This document shows positions 1 through 10,666 of a DNA stretch of 10,666 nt, in pieces. This DNA is from a virus (Duplodnaviria; Heunggongvirae; Uroviricota; Caudoviricetes), in the IMG/VR virus record IMGVR_UViG_2609459801_000016; one strand, given 5' to 3'. The notes below the pieces were generated by a model, which worked only from the letters and a program-made list of their open reading frames with translations, was not told where the DNA came from and ran no database searches. A program made the translations under genes and the position numbers. How positions within the stretch are numbered: the stretch's first letter is position 1; each line of letters opens with the position of its first letter.

Positions 1-1113
1 ATGAATTACTCTCACGATAACTGGTCAGCAATTCTGGCCCATATTGGTAAGCCCGAAGAACTGGATACTTCGGCACGTAATGCCGGGGCTCTACCCCGCC
101 GCCGCGAAATTCGTGATGCTGCAACTCTGCTACGTCTGGGGCTGGCTTACGGCCCCGGGGGGATGTCATTACGTGAAGTCACTGCATGGGCTCAGCTCCA
201 TGACGTTGCAACATTATCTGACGTGGCTCTCCTGAAGCGGCTGCGGAATGCCGCCGACTGGTTTGGCATACTTGCCGCACAAACACTTGCTGTACGCGCC
301 GCAGTTACGGGTTGTACAAGCGGAAAGAGATTGCGTCTTGTCGATGGAACAGCAATCAGTGCGCCCGGGGGCGGCAGCGCTGAATGGCGACTACATATGG
401 GATATGATCCTCATACCTGTCAGTTCACTGATTTTGAGCTAACCGACAGCAGAGACGCTGAACGGCTGGACCGATTTGCGCAAACGGCAGACGAGATACG
501 CATTGCTGACCGGGGATTCGGTTCGCGTCCCGAATGTATCCGCTCACTTGCTTTTGGAGAAGCTGATTATATCGTCCGGGTTCACTGGCGAGGATTGCGC
601 TGGTTAACTGCAGAAGGAATGCGCTTTGACATGATGGGTTTTCTGCGCGGGCTGGATTGCGGTAAGAACGGTGAAACCACTGTAATGATAGGCAATTCAG
701 GTAATAAAAAAGCCGGAGCTCCCTTTCCGGCACGTCTCATTGCCGTATCACTTCCTCCCGAAAAAGCATTAATCAGTAAAACCCGACTGCTCAGCGAGAA
801 TCGTCGAAAAGGACGAGTAGTTCAGGCGGAAACGCTGGAAGCAGCGGGCCATGTGCTATTGCTAACATCATTACCGGAAGATGAATATTCAGCAGAGCAA
901 GTGGCTGATTGTTACCGTCTGCGATGGCAAATTGAACTGGCTTTTAAGCGGCTCAAAAGTTTGCTGCACCTGGATGCTTTGCGTGCAAAGGAACCTGAAC
1001 TCGCGAAAGCGTGGATATTTGCTAATCTACTCGCCGCATTTTTAATTGACGACATAATCCAGCCATCGCTGGATTTCCCCCCCAGAAGTGCCGGATCCGA
1101 AAAGAAGAACTAA
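1..1113 (+). CDS. insL: IS4-family DDE transposase, IS186/IS421-type (InsL-like), 370 aa
   Basis: Uninterrupted 370-codon ORF starting with ATG at window position 1. C-terminal YRLRWQIELAFKRLK matches the Y-2-R-3-E-6-K signature of IS4-family transposases. Length and N-terminus (MNYSHDNW...) match my recollection of E. coli IS186 InsL; not verified by search. Confidence 0.85.
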   Translation: MNYSHDNWSAILAHIGKPEELDTSARNAGALPRRREIRDAATLLRLGLAYGPGGMSLREVTAWAQLHDVATLSDVALLKRLRNAADWFGILAAQTLAVRAAVTGCTSGKRLRLVDGTAISAPGGGSAEWRLHMGYDPHTCQFTDFELTDSRDAERLDRFAQTADEIRIADRGFGSRPECIRSLAFGEADYIVRVHWRGLRWLTAEGMRFDMMGFLRGLDCGKNGETTVMIGNSGNKKAGAPFPARLIAVSLPPEKALISKTRLLSENRRKGRVVQAETLEAAGHVLLLTSLPEDEYSAEQVADCYRLRWQIELAFKRLKSLLHLDALRAKEPELAKAWIFANLLAAFLIDDIIQPSLDFPPRSAGSEKKN

Positions 1114-1283
1114 CTCGTTGTGGAGAATAACAAAAATGGTCATCTGGAGCTTACAGGTGGCCATTCGTGGGACAGTATCCCTGACAGCCTACAAAGCGCA
1201 ATTGAAGAACGCGAGGCATCGTCTTAACGAGGCACCGAGGCGTCGCATTCTTCAGATGGTTCAACCCTTAAGTTAGCGCTTAT
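1..1283 (+). mobile_element. IS186-like insertion sequence, partial (left end lies upstream of the window); right end inferred near 1280-1284
   Basis: Transposase ORF plus about 170 bp of 3' non-coding sequence ending in the palindrome-rich ...CAACCCTTAAGTTAGCGCTTATG (1262-1283), which I recall as the IS186 terminus. It is followed by a G/C-rich flank (GGGGTGCCGGTGGGG), consistent with the known GC-rich target preference of IS186. The other end is not in the window, so inverted repeat and target duplication cannot be confirmed. Confidence 0.55.
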
Positions 1284-1426
1284 GGGGTGCCGGTGGGGTC
1301 GAGATACGTGGTGTTTTCTTTCCCTTCCCAGTAGCCGGTGTAGTGCGTGGCAATAGTGAACGTCCCGGCTCCGGCCAGAACAAGGGCAATCAGCTTTTTA
1401 CGCAGTGGCGCGGGGAGTTTTGGCAT
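1280..1426 (-). pseudogene. 5' fragment (48 codons) of a SAR-type lysozyme endolysin, truncated by the IS insertion
   Basis: ATG at 1426..1424, translation MPKLPAPLRKKLIALVLAGAGTFTIATHYTGYWEGKENTTYLDPTGTP then TAA at 1282..1280 inside the putative IS terminus. Lys-rich N-terminus plus Gly/Ala-rich weakly hydrophobic segment resembles a signal-anchor-release domain. E34-G35...Y41-L42-D43...G46 fits the start of the E-8aa-D-5aa-T catalytic motif of T4-lysozyme-like (GH24) endolysins; the reading frame is cut just before the expected Thr. Confidence 0.5.
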
Positions 1427-1497
1427 TGTTACGCTGTCTCATGGTGTTCTCTGAGCCAGCGTAACCGTGGGAAAAAGGGGGCAGGATTTGCGGAATA

Positions 1498-1920
1498 TCA
1501 GAAAAGCCGGGGCTGCGTGCGCTCCTGATGCAGGCGACGCTGGTTGCGGATAACGGAGTAAATCTGCGTCTCTGACATCTGGTAATGGCGGCGCAGGGTT
1601 TCAATTTTTTCGCCCTGGCTCCAGCGGGAAAAAATTTCATTATTGCGCAGTTCGGTGAAAAGGGATTCACCGACCGGGAGATAATAACCACGCCCGCCCA
1701 TGTACCCGGCCTGTGCGGCTGCAACCTTACGGGCAAGCATTCCCGCCTGAGCAGGTTCAATCCCCTGACGGTGCAGTTCAGCACTGATCACATCAACCAG
1801 GTCCCGCAGCGTGCCGGGCCAGTTCTTTTTCAGCTCATCATCAGGAATATCATCCAGACGGTCAATCAGCGCGTGCAGCTGTTCGCTGTCACCAAACATG
1901 CTCATCTGTGTTTCAGCCAT
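1498..1920 (-). CDS. mor: Mor/C-family transcriptional activator (Mor-like), 140 aa
   Basis: ATG at 1920 preceded by GGAGG 5 nt upstream. The translation aligns by eye along its length with phage Mu Mor as I recall it (FGD near N-terminus, central GG..Y.P.G, C-terminal HTH-like ...IYSVIRNQRRL...QP.L). Position directly after gemA matches Mu gene order. Confidence 0.75.
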   Translation of the reverse strand: MAETQMSMFGDSEQLHALIDRLDDIPDDELKKNWPGTLRDLVDVISAELHRQGIEPAQAGMLARKVAAAQAGYMGGRGYYLPVGESLFTELRNNEIFSRWSQGEKIETLRRHYQMSETQIYSVIRNQRRLHQERTQPRLF

Positions 1921-1950
1921 ACCCGCCTCCGGTCATCATTACACAGGGCA

Positions 1951-1986
1951 AGTTTAAAATAAAAATCCCGCGCTGTGGCGGGATTT
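1951..1986 (-). terminator. Putative Rho-independent terminator/attenuator between gemA-like and mor-like genes
   Basis: On the minus-strand transcript: 9-bp stem AAAUCCCGC / GCGGGAUUU (plus coordinates 1963-1971 and 1978-1986) with a 6-nt loop, followed immediately by UUAUUUUAAACU (1951-1962). It begins 4 nt after the gemA-like stop codon. Confidence 0.5.
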
Positions 1987-1990
1987 GGGG

Positions 1991-2503
1991 TTAAAAGGGG
2001 GAGGATTCTTCATACAGCCTGCAAACGCGCTCATAACTCATCACTGTACGCGCTGACATCCCCAGCACATCCAGCATCTTGCGGCGGTGCCAGCGTTTGA
2101 GACGCTCCAGCACATCAGAGGCCAGCGCGGGGTGTTGTTCCAGCCACTGCCAGTTAGCCACACCTTCGCCGCCGTTCTGAGCGACCGTCTGCGATTTCAC
2201 CCAGCGGTTAAGGGCTGTTTCCCCGCCATCAGAGATAAAGCCCTGCCGGTGCATCACCTTCCAGATGGCGCGAATTTTGGCGGTCACCGTACCCGGTTTT
2301 AAGGCCCGGTTAACCGGCTTCTGACGCACTTTAAAACCGCGTTTTTTGAAAACATCCAGCACGCGGGATAACTCATCCGGTGACATATCCCGGCAACTGG
2401 GTTTGCCGGTGGCTGCCAGTAGTACGGATGTGTAGGTCTCATGGTCAAGCTGTAGATCGCGTTTTGCGACATGTATTAAGGTAATCAGGGAAGCGCGATT
2501 CAT
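1991..2503 (-). CDS. gemA: GemA-like protein (phage Mu gp16 / DUF1018 family), 170 aa
   Basis: ATG at 2503 with GGAGA 7 nt upstream. N-terminal LITLIHVAKRDLQLDHETYTSVLLAATGKPSCRDMSPDELSRVLDVFKKRGFK fits the GemA/DUF1018 pattern as I remember it. Lies directly upstream of the mor-like gene, as in Mu. Confidence 0.7.
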   Translation of the reverse strand: MNRASLITLIHVAKRDLQLDHETYTSVLLAATGKPSCRDMSPDELSRVLDVFKKRGFKVRQKPVNRALKPGTVTAKIRAIWKVMHRQGFISDGGETALNRWVKSQTVAQNGGEGVANWQWLEQHPALASDVLERLKRWHRRKMLDVLGMSARTVMSYERVCRLYEESSPF

Positions 2504-3613: not shown

Positions 3614-3939
3614 GCATTCACCTCCCGTAATTCCGGTAAAGCCGAAATATGACACCAGTGCGTCACCTGTCCGTCTTCATCTTCAAGGCAGGCTCCGGTT
3701 TCTTCATCAACAAAAAAGCCTTCATACCCCATATGGCCGATGCGCAGCTCCTGACGGTGACCATACTGAACAATCAGCACGACAGCCTCCATATCAGGTG
3801 GGAAAGTATCATTCAGTGAATGCCAGGGATAACCGCGTAAATCCCCGAAATAAACACCGGTCAGCGTTCCGCCACAGAGCGGCATTCCGGCGGCACACAC
3901 AAGAGGTTCATCTGATTCAACAAATAAGGTCGTTATCAT
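3610..3939 (-). CDS. Hypothetical protein, 109 aa; C-terminal VTHW...LPE motif reminiscent of DUF551 phage proteins
   Basis: ATG at 3939 overlaps the upstream stop as ATGA, with GGGAG 8 nt upstream. The C-terminal GQVTHWCHISALPE resembles the conserved C-terminal motif of DUF551 proteins as I recall them; weak assignment. Confidence 0.55.
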   Translation of the reverse strand: MITTLFVESDEPLVCAAGMPLCGGTLTGVYFGDLRGYPWHSLNDTFPPDMEAVVLIVQYGHRQELRIGHMGYEGFFVDEETGACLEDEDGQVTHWCHISALPELREVNA

Positions 3940-4487
3940 GGCGTTAACTCCCGTAATACAGCGTCCTCGGCAGTCCGGCGACGGTAATAAACTGCGTGAG
4001 CAGAATGTTCAGATATTCCAAACTTTTCGCCAATTTCCCGGAATGACAGACGGCGTGGGTAATCGGAATCACGCAGCGCACGTATAAGACGTACATCATC
4101 ATCAGATATGCGCGTGCCGGGGCGTAACTCTCCGCACTTTGTTAATCCAGCACCAATCATTCCTGCCCGACATCTGACAGAATCTTTATTACGTCCGAGA
4201 TATTCTCCCATTTGCTGGCAGGTCATTGTTCTGGCATTTTTTCGAATAAACTTATCTTCATCAGGTGTAAATCTTGGGTGTTTATATTTCAGTAACTCCG
4301 GGTATGAACTGCGCAATACACCAGTCCGGTTATATACAGCCCAGACAGTTCTTTTTATTCTGGCAGCAATATCCTTAACCGGGGTGGATGAATAAAGCGC
4401 AATCAGCAGCGCATCTTCTTCAGGTGTCCACGGACGGACATGAGCGGGGGCGCGACCTTTTAGTCCCATGGGTTGTAATTTCATCAT
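3936..4487 (-). CDS. Predicted DNA-binding protein with two Myb/GcrA-like HTH repeats and a third C-terminal HTH, 183 aa
   Basis: ATG at 4487 with GGGGGTGA upstream. Repeat 1 WTPEEDALLIALYSSTPVKDIAARIKRTVWAVYNRTGVL and repeat 2 FTPDEDKFIRKNARTMTCQQMGEYLGRNKDSVRCRAGMIG both follow the W/F-T-x-E/D-E-D...I/M-A/G...R..AV pattern of GcrA-N/Myb-like HTH domains. The C-terminal LSFREIGEKFGISEHSAHAVYYRR looks like a further HTH. Confidence 0.6.
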   Translation of the reverse strand: MMKLQPMGLKGRAPAHVRPWTPEEDALLIALYSSTPVKDIAARIKRTVWAVYNRTGVLRSSYPELLKYKHPRFTPDEDKFIRKNARTMTCQQMGEYLGRNKDSVRCRAGMIGAGLTKCGELRPGTRISDDDVRLIRALRDSDYPRRLSFREIGEKFGISEHSAHAVYYRRRTAEDAVLRELTP

Positions 4488-6524: not shown

Positions 6525-6797
6525 TTACCCCTGTTGATTAAATTCATTACCGTTAATAACCCCGGAAGCCATGCCTCTGTCTTTCATGAATGCACTGGCT
6601 TTCATTGCCACAAACTCTGCGAAGTTTCTGCTTTCTGCCAGCATAACCACCCCAAAAATCATGGCGGGTCCATTATCTTTCTTCTTTATTCCGGTTGAAC
6701 GTATATCCAGACTTACCCCTCTGTGCGTGCTGCCATCAGAGTTTTTGCAGATAACATCTTCCTTGTATTCGAAAATAATGCGTACGACTTTACTCAT
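6525..6797 (-). CDS. Hypothetical small protein, 90 aa; paralog of the adjacent downstream gene
   Basis: ATG at 6797 overlapping the upstream stop as ATGA, with GAGGA upstream. Shares N-terminal and scattered internal similarity with the 6227-6520 product. Confidence 0.6.
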   Translation of the reverse strand: MSKVVRIIFEYKEDVICKNSDGSTHRGVSLDIRSTGIKKKDNGPAMIFGVVMLAESRNFAEFVAMKASAFMKDRGMASGVINGNEFNQQG

Positions 6798-7075
6798 CCT
6801 CTGGTCCTCGTTCTGTTTGGATAACTGACCCGGCGTCTAACCTCACGGCAGAACCGAATCATGGCATTAAAGGCTTCTTCCTCCGTCACCGCTTCCGGTA
6901 TCCCCGGAACCAGTAACTGCTCCTGTTCATCACGTCCATGACGCGCCATAACCTCAATCACATACCGTACCGTGGCAGGCTTTCCGGCAACTATCGGCAA
7001 TGCACCTTCCGGCAGGACGTAACCAAACTCAATAAGACCACTCGACCACGCCCATGCAATGAGATTTTTTTTCAC
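6794..7075 (-). CDS. Hypothetical protein, 93 aa (GTG start)
   Basis: GTG at 7075 preceded by GGGAGG with about 6-nt spacing, directly after the upstream TGA. No family recognised. Confidence 0.5.
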   Translation of the reverse strand: MKKNLIAWAWSSGLIEFGYVLPEGALPIVAGKPATVRYVIEVMARHGRDEQEQLLVPGIPEAVTEEEAFNAMIRFCREVRRRVSYPNRTRTRG

Positions 7076-7567: not shown

Positions 7568-8500
7568 TCACACCTGTGAGAGTAATTCAGGGTTGGTATA
7601 AACCTCTTTAAAGGCCGCATTAATATGTTTTTCTGTCAGCGCCGCGCCTTCACCGCTGGCGGTGAGCCACGCCTGGTTAAGCGTATGTGTCAGAACGCGT
7701 AACGCTCCCGGCTTTTCAGCGATAGCCTGCATGACGGCCAGCTCGGCCTCACCACTGATCCCCCACGCCATGGCAATGGCCAGCACATCCGCCTTTTTGG
7801 CCTTGCGAAGTTGTTTTGTACGGGCAAGACGGCTGAACAGGCGCGATAAATCATCAAAGGCGCGGCGTCCACCTTTAAACAATCCGCGCGGGTTACCAAT
7901 AAGCACCATCCCGATCCCCGTGGCGTCCTGAATTGCCCGGAGTTGCTCCAGACCGTCAATACCAAGATGATCCGCCTCATCCACAATCACCAGTCCACGC
8001 GTTCCCATCAGGCGACGGCGGATGGCGCGGGATAATGCCCCTTTGTTCGCGCGGGTGTAATCAATCCCCAGCGCATCGGCCAGCTCCAGCAGACACTCCG
8101 TGACGCTGGAGTGCGCGGGTGACAGGGTGATCATCCAGGTGTTTGGTTGCTCCTGGCAGTAATTACGGGCAGTGGCCGTTTTACCCACACCCGGTACGCC
8201 CACAATAACGTTAATACAGCCCATCAGGCGAACCGCCTGAAACAGTGCGCGCAGCTCCTGGACTGTCTGAGTTTCCACAAACTGCGGCGGTTCCGGCAGT
8301 GCGCTTTGTTTATTCCAGTTCTCATACCAGGAGCGCAGGGAAGCAGCCACAGCGGCGTTATCGCCTTTATATTTCCCCTTGCGGAAAGCCGATAATGTGC
8401 CGTCGGAAATTCCCGCCTCTCTGGCGATGGCATACTGCGTCAGCACGCCGCCATCAATAAGTTCATCAATGGTCTTGATTACATCGTTTATATCGGTCAT
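7568..8500 (-). CDS. B: MuB-like transposition ATPase / target DNA activator, 310 aa
   Basis: ATG at 8500 with GAGGT upstream. Walker A GVPGVGKT, Walker B-like LVIVDEADHL, and end-to-end similarity to Mu B as I recall it (ETQTV..., KPGALRVL...). Lies directly downstream of the transposase. Confidence 0.9.
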   Translation of the reverse strand: MTDINDVIKTIDELIDGGVLTQYAIAREAGISDGTLSAFRKGKYKGDNAAVAASLRSWYENWNKQSALPEPPQFVETQTVQELRALFQAVRLMGCINVIVGVPGVGKTATARNYCQEQPNTWMITLSPAHSSVTECLLELADALGIDYTRANKGALSRAIRRRLMGTRGLVIVDEADHLGIDGLEQLRAIQDATGIGMVLIGNPRGLFKGGRRAFDDLSRLFSRLARTKQLRKAKKADVLAIAMAWGISGEAELAVMQAIAEKPGALRVLTHTLNQAWLTASGEGAALTEKHINAAFKEVYTNPELLSQV

Positions 8501-8580: not shown

Positions 8581-10666
8581 CCAGAGGGTCATTTTCTTTT
8601 AATTTCGCTTCAAGCAGCTGCAATCCCCGCTGGAAATTACGCTCGTATTCTTCATCAGGTTCATCGTCAGCGACCGGTTGCTGAACGATCACCGTATTAC
8701 CCACAGGGCGGTATATATTTTCCAGCCACGGCTCCTGTGGCTTGTGCTCCAGCACGTTGACAATCTCATCCTCGGCATCACGGATTTTTTCCTCTGCGCG
8801 TTTACGCATGCCTTTAAGGCGCTGCTGCTGTTTGTGGTATTCCGCGCTGACCGGGAAGGCTTCGCGTTTATTGCCGTCCCATACCGCCTCGCAAATCACG
8901 CTGCCATCCAGGCGACGTACGGTAATTCGTTCGGCATCATGAATGTCATAGCTGATAAGCACCTTACGACCATGCTCGTCACGCAGCTCGGGCGCGTAGT
9001 AAATATTATTCAGCCAGCGTATTTCACAGCGTCTTACAGGGCGTTCCACCATCGGCCGGAACATATCCCGCAGCTCAACATCGGACAGCCATTCAATTTC
9101 CGTGTCCTCTTCCGCCAGGCGTTTTTTTCTGAACTCCGCCGGGCTGTAATGCTTGCCGTTCGGCTTCACCGGTAATTCATCGTGCGGCCGGTTGTTGTAC
9201 CACTCAACACCATCACGAATGGCATCAATCAGTTCAGCCCAGGACGGTGAATCACGCATCGCTGACTGCTGCCGGGCGTTCAGCCGTTTGCCCTGTTGCA
9301 GGGCAGTAAATGCCGAGCGTAAATCGCGGTTGGTTTTGCGTAACGTCTCGCGATCTGCACCTTTCCCGAAATAGGTGCGGTATTTACGGGCTATGCGCAT
9401 CGGTAATGTGCGGTTAAGCCGTTCGATAATGCCTCGTCCCTGCGGATTACCGGCAATCCCGGTCGGGTGATTAATCCCCAGTCGCGGCAGTATCCCCACA
9501 ACCTCCTTATCCAGGATGTCGGCGGTTTCCCCGGAGCCGTTATCCGAGTAATACAGAAACGGTTTGCCGTGATGGCGAATGCCGTGCTGTATGGCACCGG
9601 CTACGGCGAAAACATTTTCAGCCAGGTCAAGGCTCCAGCCCACCACAAAGCGCGTGCCACCGTCGATAACAAAGGTCACTTCCGGTGCAAATGGCCGACC
9701 GTGAACCGGGTGTGCGCATTTCAGCTTCATGCCGTGACCGTCACCAATCCAGACATAATTCACCGGCATTCTGGACCAGTCGCGGCGCGTGAATCCCTCA
9801 AGCTGGCGGTATTCACTGCCGGTCACCCGGCCTTTTTGTTTCACCACTTCCGGCAGTTTCTTCATTGCGCGGCGAATGGTGTCATAAGACGGCATGATAT
9901 CGAGCATATAAGGCTCATCAGCGTGCCGGTGCTGCCATTCAGCGACAAAATCCTCGTAAGCCTCGGTCATTGGTCGGCCGTTTGACTGGCGATACTGCGC
10001 CAGAAATTCGGGCAGCCAGTTAATATCTTCGGCTTTTATTTCCTGGCGCTTACCCGGTGCCAGTAAAAGCAGGCGTTCAGCGGCGTTCTGCGCCTTGTTA
10101 AAGGCCGCAATCCAGCGTTTCAGCGTGATTTCACTTAACGCGCGGCTGTTTCCCTTTTTGGCGTTCGCCGTCTCAACCATTGCCACAATGCGCTCGTCCA
10201 GCTGCGAACGTGCCAGGTTGTCAACGATAAACCGGATAGCCTTCGCACAGCTGAAACCAGGTTGTTGCGCGACTTTCAGAACTTCGCTGACGATCGCGAT
10301 TCGTGCATCAGCCACCTGGCGCTGGTTTTCAGTCAGGGCATTAAGGCGTTCGACCATCAGTTGTGGTGATCCGCGATATGCCTCCACCGCATCAACCACG
10401 GCAGGCGAGCGTCTGGCCTTTGTCACCACTGGAGCCGGTGATTCATCGACTTTTTGAGTCATCAGTTGCAGGGCGTAGCGTTCACGTAATGCCTGCTGCG
10501 TCACTTCAGGTAAACAGTCGATGCTGTATTCAGTTGCTTTAGAGCCTGAGCGACGACGGGAACAACAGCTTTTCCCTTGTACGTAACGTTGTAATGCCTG
10601 GCGAATACCTTTTGTTGTAGCAGGCATTCCGGGCGCACCAATCAGTTCTTTTGCAATGACATACAT
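8576..10666 (-). CDS. A: MuA-like DDE transposase, 696 aa
   Basis: ATG at the window edge (10666..10664); the true start could be a codon or two upstream but the N-terminus (YVIAKELIGAPGMP) aligns with the Mu A N-terminus as I recall it. Central catalytic region (...WIGDGHGMKL..., ...YYSDNGSGE...) and C-terminal RPVGNT...DDEPDEEYER tail also resemble Mu A. Confidence 0.9.
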   Translation of the reverse strand: MYVIAKELIGAPGMPATTKGIRQALQRYVQGKSCCSRRRSGSKATEYSIDCLPEVTQQALRERYALQLMTQKVDESPAPVVTKARRSPAVVDAVEAYRGSPQLMVERLNALTENQRQVADARIAIVSEVLKVAQQPGFSCAKAIRFIVDNLARSQLDERIVAMVETANAKKGNSRALSEITLKRWIAAFNKAQNAAERLLLLAPGKRQEIKAEDINWLPEFLAQYRQSNGRPMTEAYEDFVAEWQHRHADEPYMLDIMPSYDTIRRAMKKLPEVVKQKGRVTGSEYRQLEGFTRRDWSRMPVNYVWIGDGHGMKLKCAHPVHGRPFAPEVTFVIDGGTRFVVGWSLDLAENVFAVAGAIQHGIRHHGKPFLYYSDNGSGETADILDKEVVGILPRLGINHPTGIAGNPQGRGIIERLNRTLPMRIARKYRTYFGKGADRETLRKTNRDLRSAFTALQQGKRLNARQQSAMRDSPSWAELIDAIRDGVEWYNNRPHDELPVKPNGKHYSPAEFRKKRLAEEDTEIEWLSDVELRDMFRPMVERPVRRCEIRWLNNIYYAPELRDEHGRKVLISYDIHDAERITVRRLDGSVICEAVWDGNKREAFPVSAEYHKQQQRLKGMRKRAEEKIRDAEDEIVNVLEHKPQEPWLENIYRPVGNTVIVQQPVADDEPDEEYERNFQRGLQLLEAKLKENDPLA

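Follow-up and report, generated by a model that had tools for sequence, protein, structure and literature searches.

The junction between gemA and the lysis gene described here is a gene-control region in its normal form, from a Mu-like prophage that is common in E. coli, and the lineage that carries it appears to run on a single C-type activator in place of the Mor-then-C pair of phage Mu. The picture that we consider probable is a single-activator switch from early to late transcription, in which a conventional terminator stands before the activator gene and an activator-dependent promoter of the lysis gene lies behind it.

The window (the whole stretch of 10,666 nucleotides that was analyzed) contains the left third of a Mu-like transposable prophage, encoded on the minus strand, as judged from its open reading frames (ORFs) and Pfam matches. 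Transposase A (10666-8576), the B ATPase (8500-7568), and gam (6215-5685) are found on this strand, and several small early genes in series are also present in the prophage segment. The last gene ahead of the terminator is gemA (1991-2503, minus strand; Pfam GemA, 99.7 bits), a gp16-family gene whose counterpart in relatives is annotated as 'gp16 family protein'. Its TAA stop codon occupies 1993-1991, and CCCC follows (1990-1987). Together with the prophage annotation, these genes give a single-activator Mu-like layout of A/B, gam, gemA, and one Mor/C gene with lys adjoining.

The lysis gene itself is interrupted. An insertion sequence (IS) of the IS421/IS186 type (IS4 family), recognized by its Pfam DDE_Tnp_1 domain, occupies positions 1-1283 on the plus strand, with its transposase at 1-1113 and its right terminal repeat, CATAAGCGCTAACTTAAGGGTTG, ending at 1283/1284. 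It is 99.7% identical to copies annotated as 'IS4-like element IS421 family transposase' in 2217 E. coli genomes. In an intact, 99.9%-identical prophage (NZ_OZ547136.1) the homology with the window starts exactly at 1284. Therefore only the first 143 nt (1284-1426, minus strand) of the SAR-endolysin/lysozyme gene (lys) are left, and this remnant matches, at 99.9% identity, the 5′ end of a gene in locus L001 that is annotated as a lysozyme of 166 aa. An earlier note on this DNA had placed the endolysin start downstream of the activator gene; the start is indeed found at 1426, but what follows is a 48-codon N-terminal stub (1426-1284) cut by the IS. The insertion is the sole abnormal feature of the junction, and with lys disrupted the prophage of this strain is probably unable to lyse its host.

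The activator gene (1498-1920, minus strand) encodes a 140-aa protein and is preceded by a GGAGG Shine-Dalgarno sequence at 1930-1926, with the ATG at 1920. The protein matches the Pfam Mor profile (PF08765) at 106.9 bits, against a gathering cut-off of 24.9, and residues 33-139 align to positions 2-107 of the 107 in the profile. Mor/C proteins are about 100-150 aa long, are acidic in their N-terminal and basic in their C-terminal half, and carry a conserved GG linker motif (PMC2582627). All of these family features, profile match, size, charge halves, and GG motif, are present in the 140-aa protein. Its N-terminal half contains 13 D+E vs 7 K+R and its C-terminal half 7 D+E vs 11 K+R, and the segment YMGGRGYYLP aligns with FLGGRQFYIP of Mu C and HLGGGQVYIP of Mu Mor.

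Within the family the protein is of the C type: it is nearer to Mu C (AF083977; likewise 140 aa) at 40% identity and 111 bits than to Mu Mor at 28% identity and 59 bits, its gene lies directly upstream of lys, and a late promoter is predicted in the spacer between them. The bias of C over Mor, about two-fold, is common to the 84%-, 67%-, and 50%-identity relatives (L033, L041, and L044). Further analysis covered an intact relative (L006). This prophage is inserted in dcyD and extends over about 39 kb, from the repressor gene to com-mom. Its six-frame ORFs of at least 35 aa were searched by phmmer with speed filters off, using Mu Mor, Mu C, and the window protein as queries. Exactly one Mor/C ORF was recovered from the whole of L006, whereas the same search of Mu, the positive control, recovered both Mor and C; a second Mor/C ORF that could serve a Mor-dependent middle promoter was therefore not found by six-frame phmmer anywhere in L006. 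With one Mor/C ORF that resembles C, the genes of Mu that have no counterpart here are mor and gp18-20, and not C.

In Mu the gene order is gemA, mor, terminator/Pm, gp18-20, C, terminator/Plys, and lys (AF083977), so the statement in the earlier note that C and other genes lie between mor and lys agrees with the annotation. Its suggestion that this lineage uses a single Mor/C-family activator is likewise borne out. Its description of the layout as mor without a separate C-like gene holds in part, in that only one Mor/C gene is present; the gene itself, however, is the C-like one. As in the C/Plys region of Mu, a Mor/C-family protein is encoded immediately upstream of lys, albeit with only 40% identity to Mu C. 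Unlike in Mu, no Mor, Pm, or gp18-20 lies upstream of the activator, and the activator gene and lys are not separated by a terminator.

The spacer between the activator gene and lys is 71 bp long (1427-1497), as the earlier note had stated, and is predicted to hold an activator-dependent late promoter of lys, read from the minus strand. The putative activator-binding box, TTTCTGATATTCCGCAAA (1487-1504), overlaps the activator stop codon and was assigned from its conservation and recurrence. It is followed by a variable spacer of 23 nt (1464-1486) and by the −10 hexamer TACGCT (1458-1463), which is invariant in relatives. A −35 hexamer is absent from this promoter. The motif CTGCCCCCTTTTTCC, highlighted in the earlier note, is present at 1484-1470 within the variable spacer; the stretch between box and −10 is, however, the least conserved part of the 71 bp among relatives, and the conserved parts are the box and the −10.

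The same element recurs in L006. The regions ahead of lys and of the head protease gene, and the one that directly follows a gin-like invertase gene, were compared in this locus; they correspond in position to Mu Plys, PI, and Pmom, respectively. They share TTTYTGA-N4-CCGCAAA followed after 22-23 nt by TACGCT, TATGCT, or TATTCT, with TACGCT in the same register as the hexamers of the two other boxes. When the 43-kb L006 locus was scanned for the box plus −10 at up to three mismatches, exactly these three late-operon starts were returned. In resampled sequence, 0 matches are expected at up to one mismatch and 0.3 at up to three, a count that is partly circular, as the consensus was derived from the same three sites. 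Without the −10 requirement, four further matches at two to three mismatches appeared in L006, which is within chance. Neither a fourth late promoter equivalent to Mu PP nor a box upstream of com-mom was found in the L006 scan, and no canonical box with a correctly spaced −10 lies upstream of the activator gene at up to four mismatches.

Independently of this count, the box and GTTACGCTG, which contains the −10 at 1463-1458, are invariant across the groups with 100% and 84% protein identity. Lineages with 50-65% activator identity retain recognizable boxes (TTACTGAGTCGCCGCAAA, TTACTGAACTACCGCAAA, and TTTCTAAGTTACCGCAAT; variants seen in L044, L062, and L067), each with TACTCT 22-23 nt downstream. 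At the three late-operon starts the center of the dyad lies at about −44.5 from the inferred start, and its right half lies at −42, the register of the conserved CCATAAYCCC of Mu (about 42 bp upstream). C and Mor sites have been described as imperfect dyads in the region −52 to −34, centered at −43.5 (PMC2582627; PMC4390567), and the geometry predicted here fits these published sites. From the conserved imperfect dyad, the 140-aa protein is predicted to activate promoters that lack a −35 element.

The resemblance to Mu thus extends to a −35-less promoter in a short spacer, an imperfect dyad near −44, and a TAnnnT −10, as at Plys, and to the two additional sites, ahead of the head protease gene and directly behind the invertase gene, which correspond to PI and Pmom. 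The box differs, being TTTYTGA-N4-CCGCAAA here and TTAT...ATAA/CCATAAYCCC in Mu. The regulon differs as well, in that a PP-like site was not found and the post-invertase site precedes a DUF6645 gene and not com-mom.

On the other side of the activator gene, a hairpin, AAATCCCGC-CACAGC-GCGGGATTT (1963-1986, minus strand), starts 4 nt past the gemA stop codon. With the remainder of the U-tract (1953-1962) it spans 1986-1953, ahead of the activator ribosome-binding site, and the position given for it in the earlier note was confirmed, on the minus strand. It consists of nine pairs (five of them G-C) and a 6-nt loop, and its T-run TTTTTATTTT (1965-1956; U at nine of ten positions) begins in the last three bases of the 3′ arm. 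These are the formal features of an intrinsic terminator downstream of a stop codon, and in stem, loop, and tail it is like generic intrinsic terminators. By itself the hairpin has a folding energy of −12.9 kcal/mol, close to the −14.0 kcal/mol of a 55-nt context around the annotated Mu terminator (9179-9200), and an 80-nt context of the hairpin has a folding z-score of −2.5 vs shuffles. A terminator scan returned exactly one site, at the hairpin; as shuffled sequence gives a mean of 1.7 per 1.5 kb, the evidence lies in conservation and not in counting.

This conservation is pronounced. The stems are invariant in all sampled related lineages that carry the hairpin, except for a single T-to-C change (three loci), and T-richness of the tail is kept in every copy. 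The T-to-C variant is uncompensated, and compensatory changes in the stem were not seen among the sampled lineages. As the stems are invariant, covariation is uninformative, and the structure is argued from thermodynamics and analogy. In the Salmonella relative (L041) the hairpin forms an island of 96% identity between flanks that are about 30-55% identical. In the 50%-identity relative (L044) no clean hairpin is found at the equivalent position.

Further evidence came from a scan for AAATCCCGCCACANNGCGGGATTT in one genome per species across 185,579 species. It was found in 47 places, one being a Citrobacter Mu-like prophage and the other 46 unrelated genomes across many phyla, where it follows stop codons and mostly has an A-run before it and a T-run after it. 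This recurrence of the 24-mer in unrelated phyla speaks for termination. It weakens the idea, suggested by the strict conservation, of a palindrome recognized by a specific protein, since the sequence is an ordinary terminator in those 46 genomes. Most of the unrelated copies have a 10-bp stem and a 4-nt loop, unlike the one described here. The hairpin also departs from generic terminators in that its stem sequence is frozen across phage lineages with diverged flanks and its copies bracket accessory genes. Searches of Rfam yielded two matches only, both sub-threshold and taken as chance: sR28 at 20.1 bits (cut-off 39) and Trp_leader at 19 bits (cut-off 41). A conventional intrinsic terminator that would act as such in vivo is a credible reading of the hairpin.

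The bracketing of accessory genes is seen with two unrelated opposite-strand cassettes (645 and 720 bp), each flanked by two hairpin copies. Variants that carry a cassette have two hairpin copies in series between gemA and the activator gene; one copy is always kept beside the activator gene, and the copies at gene 3′ ends keep T-rich tails. For the accessory ORFs within the inserts, neither Pfam nor PADLOC suggested a function. One locus (L017), in which the 5′ arm is absent, was considered as a natural hairpin-less variant and rejected, as an IS is inserted in the loop.

The Mu annotation places the terminator at 9179-9200 inside the Pm region (9163-9233). This early-operon terminator overlapping Pm is called t9.2 in the Howe laboratory literature. 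Both arrangements read stop codon, AAA-GC-stem hairpin, T-run, −10-like hexamer, about 30 nt, and ATG, and the hairpin here, like that of Mu, would mark the end of early transcription just before the unit that encodes the C-type protein. The terminator follows mor in Mu and gemA here.

These elements suggest how the switch may operate. Early transcription from the repressor-controlled promoter would proceed leftward in the window through A, B, gam, and gemA and then meet the terminator at 1986-1953, the positional counterpart of the Mu early-operon terminator. The terminator most likely holds the activator level low early on. It would also limit premature expression of the lysis gene: because the window contains no terminator between the activator gene and lys, the hairpin would shield lys from early transcription. 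Once made, the activator would bind TTTYTGA-N4-CCGCAAA, centered about 44 bp upstream of the starts of the −35-less promoters, and turn on the late operons. The first of these promoters would fill the spacer before lys; of the other two, one would precede the head protease gene and one would directly follow the invertase gene.

Within this overall picture, the route of activator expression that we prefer is leaky read-through past the terminator, to which we give slightly less than an even chance. The activator would then build up only through such read-through, which would provide the delay that Mu gets from its Mor-to-C cascade. Moreover, read-through would arise from repressor-controlled transcripts only, so the activator would automatically be off in lysogens. 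Against this route, a strong hairpin with a U-run of nine in ten should terminate efficiently and leave a thin supply of activator. In the cassette variants, with two hairpins in series, the supply would be thinner still, which favors a promoter near the activator gene.

Such a promoter is the basis of a second possibility, rather less likely, in which terminator and promoter are combined in the hairpin region, as they are at Mu t9.2/Pm. Most transcription of the activator gene would then start at a weak promoter of its own, switched on by a non-Mor early phage protein or by a palindrome-bound state, and read-through would be minor. A candidate −10, TAAACT (1951-1956, minus strand), and a −35-like GCCACA (1979-1974, minus strand), 17 bp upstream of it, would form a speculative promoter overlapping the terminator. 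A TAnnnT hexamer (TAAACT, TATAGT, or TATATT) follows the stem in every activator-proximal copy, at 6 nt, or at 5 nt in the L028/L070 variant with its T-run one T shorter, and is absent from the gemA-proximal copies. Further, of the six loop bases only the last two vary, and the invariant CACA before them completes GCCACA; a hairpin copy stays beside the activator gene despite cassette insertion, and the architecture from stop codon to ATG is the same as at Mu Pm. However, the hexamers fall below the threshold of a sigma-70 scan, their register is backed by two or three independent variants only, possibly of shared descent, and a T-rich tail easily gives TAnnnT by chance. A repressor-independent promoter would also have to stay off in lysogens; an early regulator that could do this, or a logic of binding sites for it, was not identified, nor did the box scan find an activator site there. 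Mu Pm requires Mor bound at −43.5 (PMC4390567), whereas here there is no Mor, and the promoter at the hairpin is only a candidate.

An extended −10 nearer the ATG, TGtAATGAT (about 1934-1942), which resembles the Mu CCTGTGATGAATAACCG leader, was rejected as the activator promoter because the 84%-identity group replaces the whole stretch.

A broader version, which we regard as doubtful, joins the promoter idea to the cassettes. The hairpin would be the core of a one-activator element of the t9.2/Pm type, read by an early factor and timing the late switch, and would at the same time serve as a short-homology boundary for cassette swapping.

Positive autoregulation is more doubtful still and in our view improbable. 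The C-like activator would bind the 5′ arm of the hairpin and activate its own gene after a read-through trigger. In a motif search of L006, CCCCAAATCCCGCCAC (1990-1975) was found to match CCGCAAATCCTGCCCC of the lys promoter at 13 of 16 positions. The distance from this match to a downstream TATTTT is 22 nt, the spacing of the invertase-proximal late promoter. This is a right half-site only, though, and the full dyad has more than four mismatches at the hairpin. The stretch with most of the 13 matching positions lacks conservation among the three late promoters, other lineages have ACCCAAA and not CCCCAAA, and the 16-mer at three mismatches also matches four more sites in L006, none of them evidently tied to the start of a late operon.

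Whichever of these routes supplies the activator, the layout around it is common. The 1.28-kb segment of gemA, activator gene, and lys is present in 231 of 5426 complete E. coli genomes (about 4%). In the best 30 of the 231 records, the annotation reads gp16 family, Mor family, and lysozyme in that order, and intact examples continue downstream with spanins, a TraR/DksA gene, and terminase genes. The same order was found in 29 IMG/VR contigs, in relatives with activator identities of 67% (a Salmonella contig), about 66%, and 50%, and in two further lineages reached via the hairpin sequence. A related-locus search of genome contigs with the activator protein alone gave no match.

Among sequenced phages, tblastn showed two Mor/C matches only in Mu, D108, SfMu, and the other close Mu relatives listed, all of which have the C match at 39.7% identity. 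Another 22 phage records (Pasteurella, Pseudoalteromonas, Shewanella, Vibrio, Burkholderia BcepMu, and others) have one match each. In Pmp9 the activator gene adjoins the lysis gene, and in Vibrio phage martha 12B12 and Shewanella MuM16-1 the single activator gene comes directly after gemA. A mor gene adjoining lys without C has been published for SuMu and two Mannheimia phages (Niu et al., PMC4553209). The prophage described here is thus like SuMu, 3927AP2, and phiMhaMu2 (Pasteurellaceae), Pmp9, martha 12B12, and MuM16-1, with one Mor/C gene after gemA, the lysis gene next, and no separate C. It differs from them in host and in an activator identity of only about 28-39%. In MuM16-1 and HS6, unlike here, the activator gene overlaps the preceding gene (gemA in MuM16-1) and there is no terminator, and Mannheimia phage 3927AP2 lacks com-mom (PMC4553209), which this lineage has.

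The layout is therefore neither unusual, as the earlier note had called it, nor rearranged, as it had offered as an alternative. The one real lesion in the window (the IS in lys) might speak for a Mu-type cascade with two activators that was recently rearranged or deleted in this strain. Such an origin is so improbable as to be refuted: 231 complete genomes, and lineages whose activators are as little as 50% identical, have the same genes in the same order with no IS among them, and in the tblastn search every sequenced phage with a Mor/C match outside Mu and its closest relatives shows just one. This adjacency in intact relatives is also what the earlier note had itself named as an observation that would count against its reading.

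Automated or by-eye annotation labels the gene 'Mor', from which a reader could wrongly conclude that the prophage lacks C or has suffered damage in this region. The phage search instead suggests that Mu-like phages are usually built with a single C-like activator beside the lysis genes, as had already been described for some of them, and that only Mu and its closest relatives use the two steps from Mor to C. This raises the question of whether a terminator could act as a timing device in place of an extra activator tier. At the level of hypothesis, the terminator as a timer or as a composite promoter, and its duplication around inserted cassettes, are curiosities of this lineage. For a prophage present in about 4% of complete E. 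coli genomes, the shared element TTTYTGA-N4-CCGCAAA with TAYKCT would define a testable regulon of three operon starts.

In several relatives of the prophage (L004, L005, L021, L027, and L043), the interval between gemA and the activator gene, a single C-like gene of the Mor/C family, is a site at which two unrelated accessory cassettes, encoded on the opposite strand, are found. With the activator gene placed on the plus strand, the region concerned is 1986-2730 in L004 and 1989-2658 in L005. A copy of the 24-nt terminator hairpin stands at either end of each cassette, with 645 and 720 bp between the copies for the two cassettes; the loop is CACAGT in the copy nearer gemA and CACAGC in the one nearer the activator gene. 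The cassette ORFs (113 and 140 aa) had no match in Pfam or PADLOC. Short homology may make the gemA-activator site a hot spot at which cassettes are exchanged.

Insertion sequences are also found here. In the IMG/VR contig L017 (IMGVR_UViG_646311913_000007), the hairpin has lost its 5' arm to an IS4-family element inserted in the loop, some 60 nt ahead of the activator start codon. This regulatory region has been hit by an IS twice, independently; the other case is that of the window, an IS421/IS186-type element (1-1283, plus strand; junction 1283/1284) whose transposase ATG is the first position of the window. The latter element interrupts the lysozyme gene 143 nt in, and the prophage of this strain is probably lysis-defective. 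The remainder of lys, if present, lies outside the window.

Just upstream of gemA, an opposite-strand DUF2513-like ORF (2568-2915, plus) interrupts the early operon, and early transcripts must traverse it in antisense on their way to gemA. The ORF is probably truncated in the window, since it encodes 115 aa as opposed to 136 aa in the relative L002. A GC-rich hairpin, GGCGGC-N8-GCCGCC (2525-2544), precedes the gemA start codon by roughly 20 nt. Phage Mu has a similar hairpin at the equivalent place (GGCGGTG-N6-CACCGCC, 8193-8212), which falls within its annotated semi-early promoter region.

Another early gene (3936-4487, minus strand) encodes a 183-aa product with weak Myb/SANT and HTH matches, for which RefSeq gives the annotation SANT/Myb-like DNA-binding protein. 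This product may be an early regulator, and Mu has no named counterpart of it. Substitutions relative to the intact prophage L001, which is otherwise 99.9% identical, cluster densely at 6614-6781; judged by this comparison, the stretch is a short mosaic piece among the early genes. In L001 and L002, RefSeq places a 'tRNA-OTHER' (1673-1752 and 1671-1750, respectively, both plus) between genes G (virion morphogenesis) and F (minor head), on the strand opposite the prophage genes.

In the intact relative L006, the predicted -10 (TATGCT) of the predicted protease-gene late promoter (22825-22878, minus) ends just 6 nt ahead of the annotated ATG. Because the protease lines up with Mu protein I at its N-terminus, the transcript would have no leader, or almost none. 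A third predicted late-promoter box (6896-6913, minus) follows the gin-like invertase gene; the gene downstream encodes a 684-aa DUF6645 protein, whereas in Mu this place is taken by com-mom. Since the 289-bp region upstream of com in L006 (3444-3732) contains no recognisable late-promoter box, control of mom may differ in this lineage.
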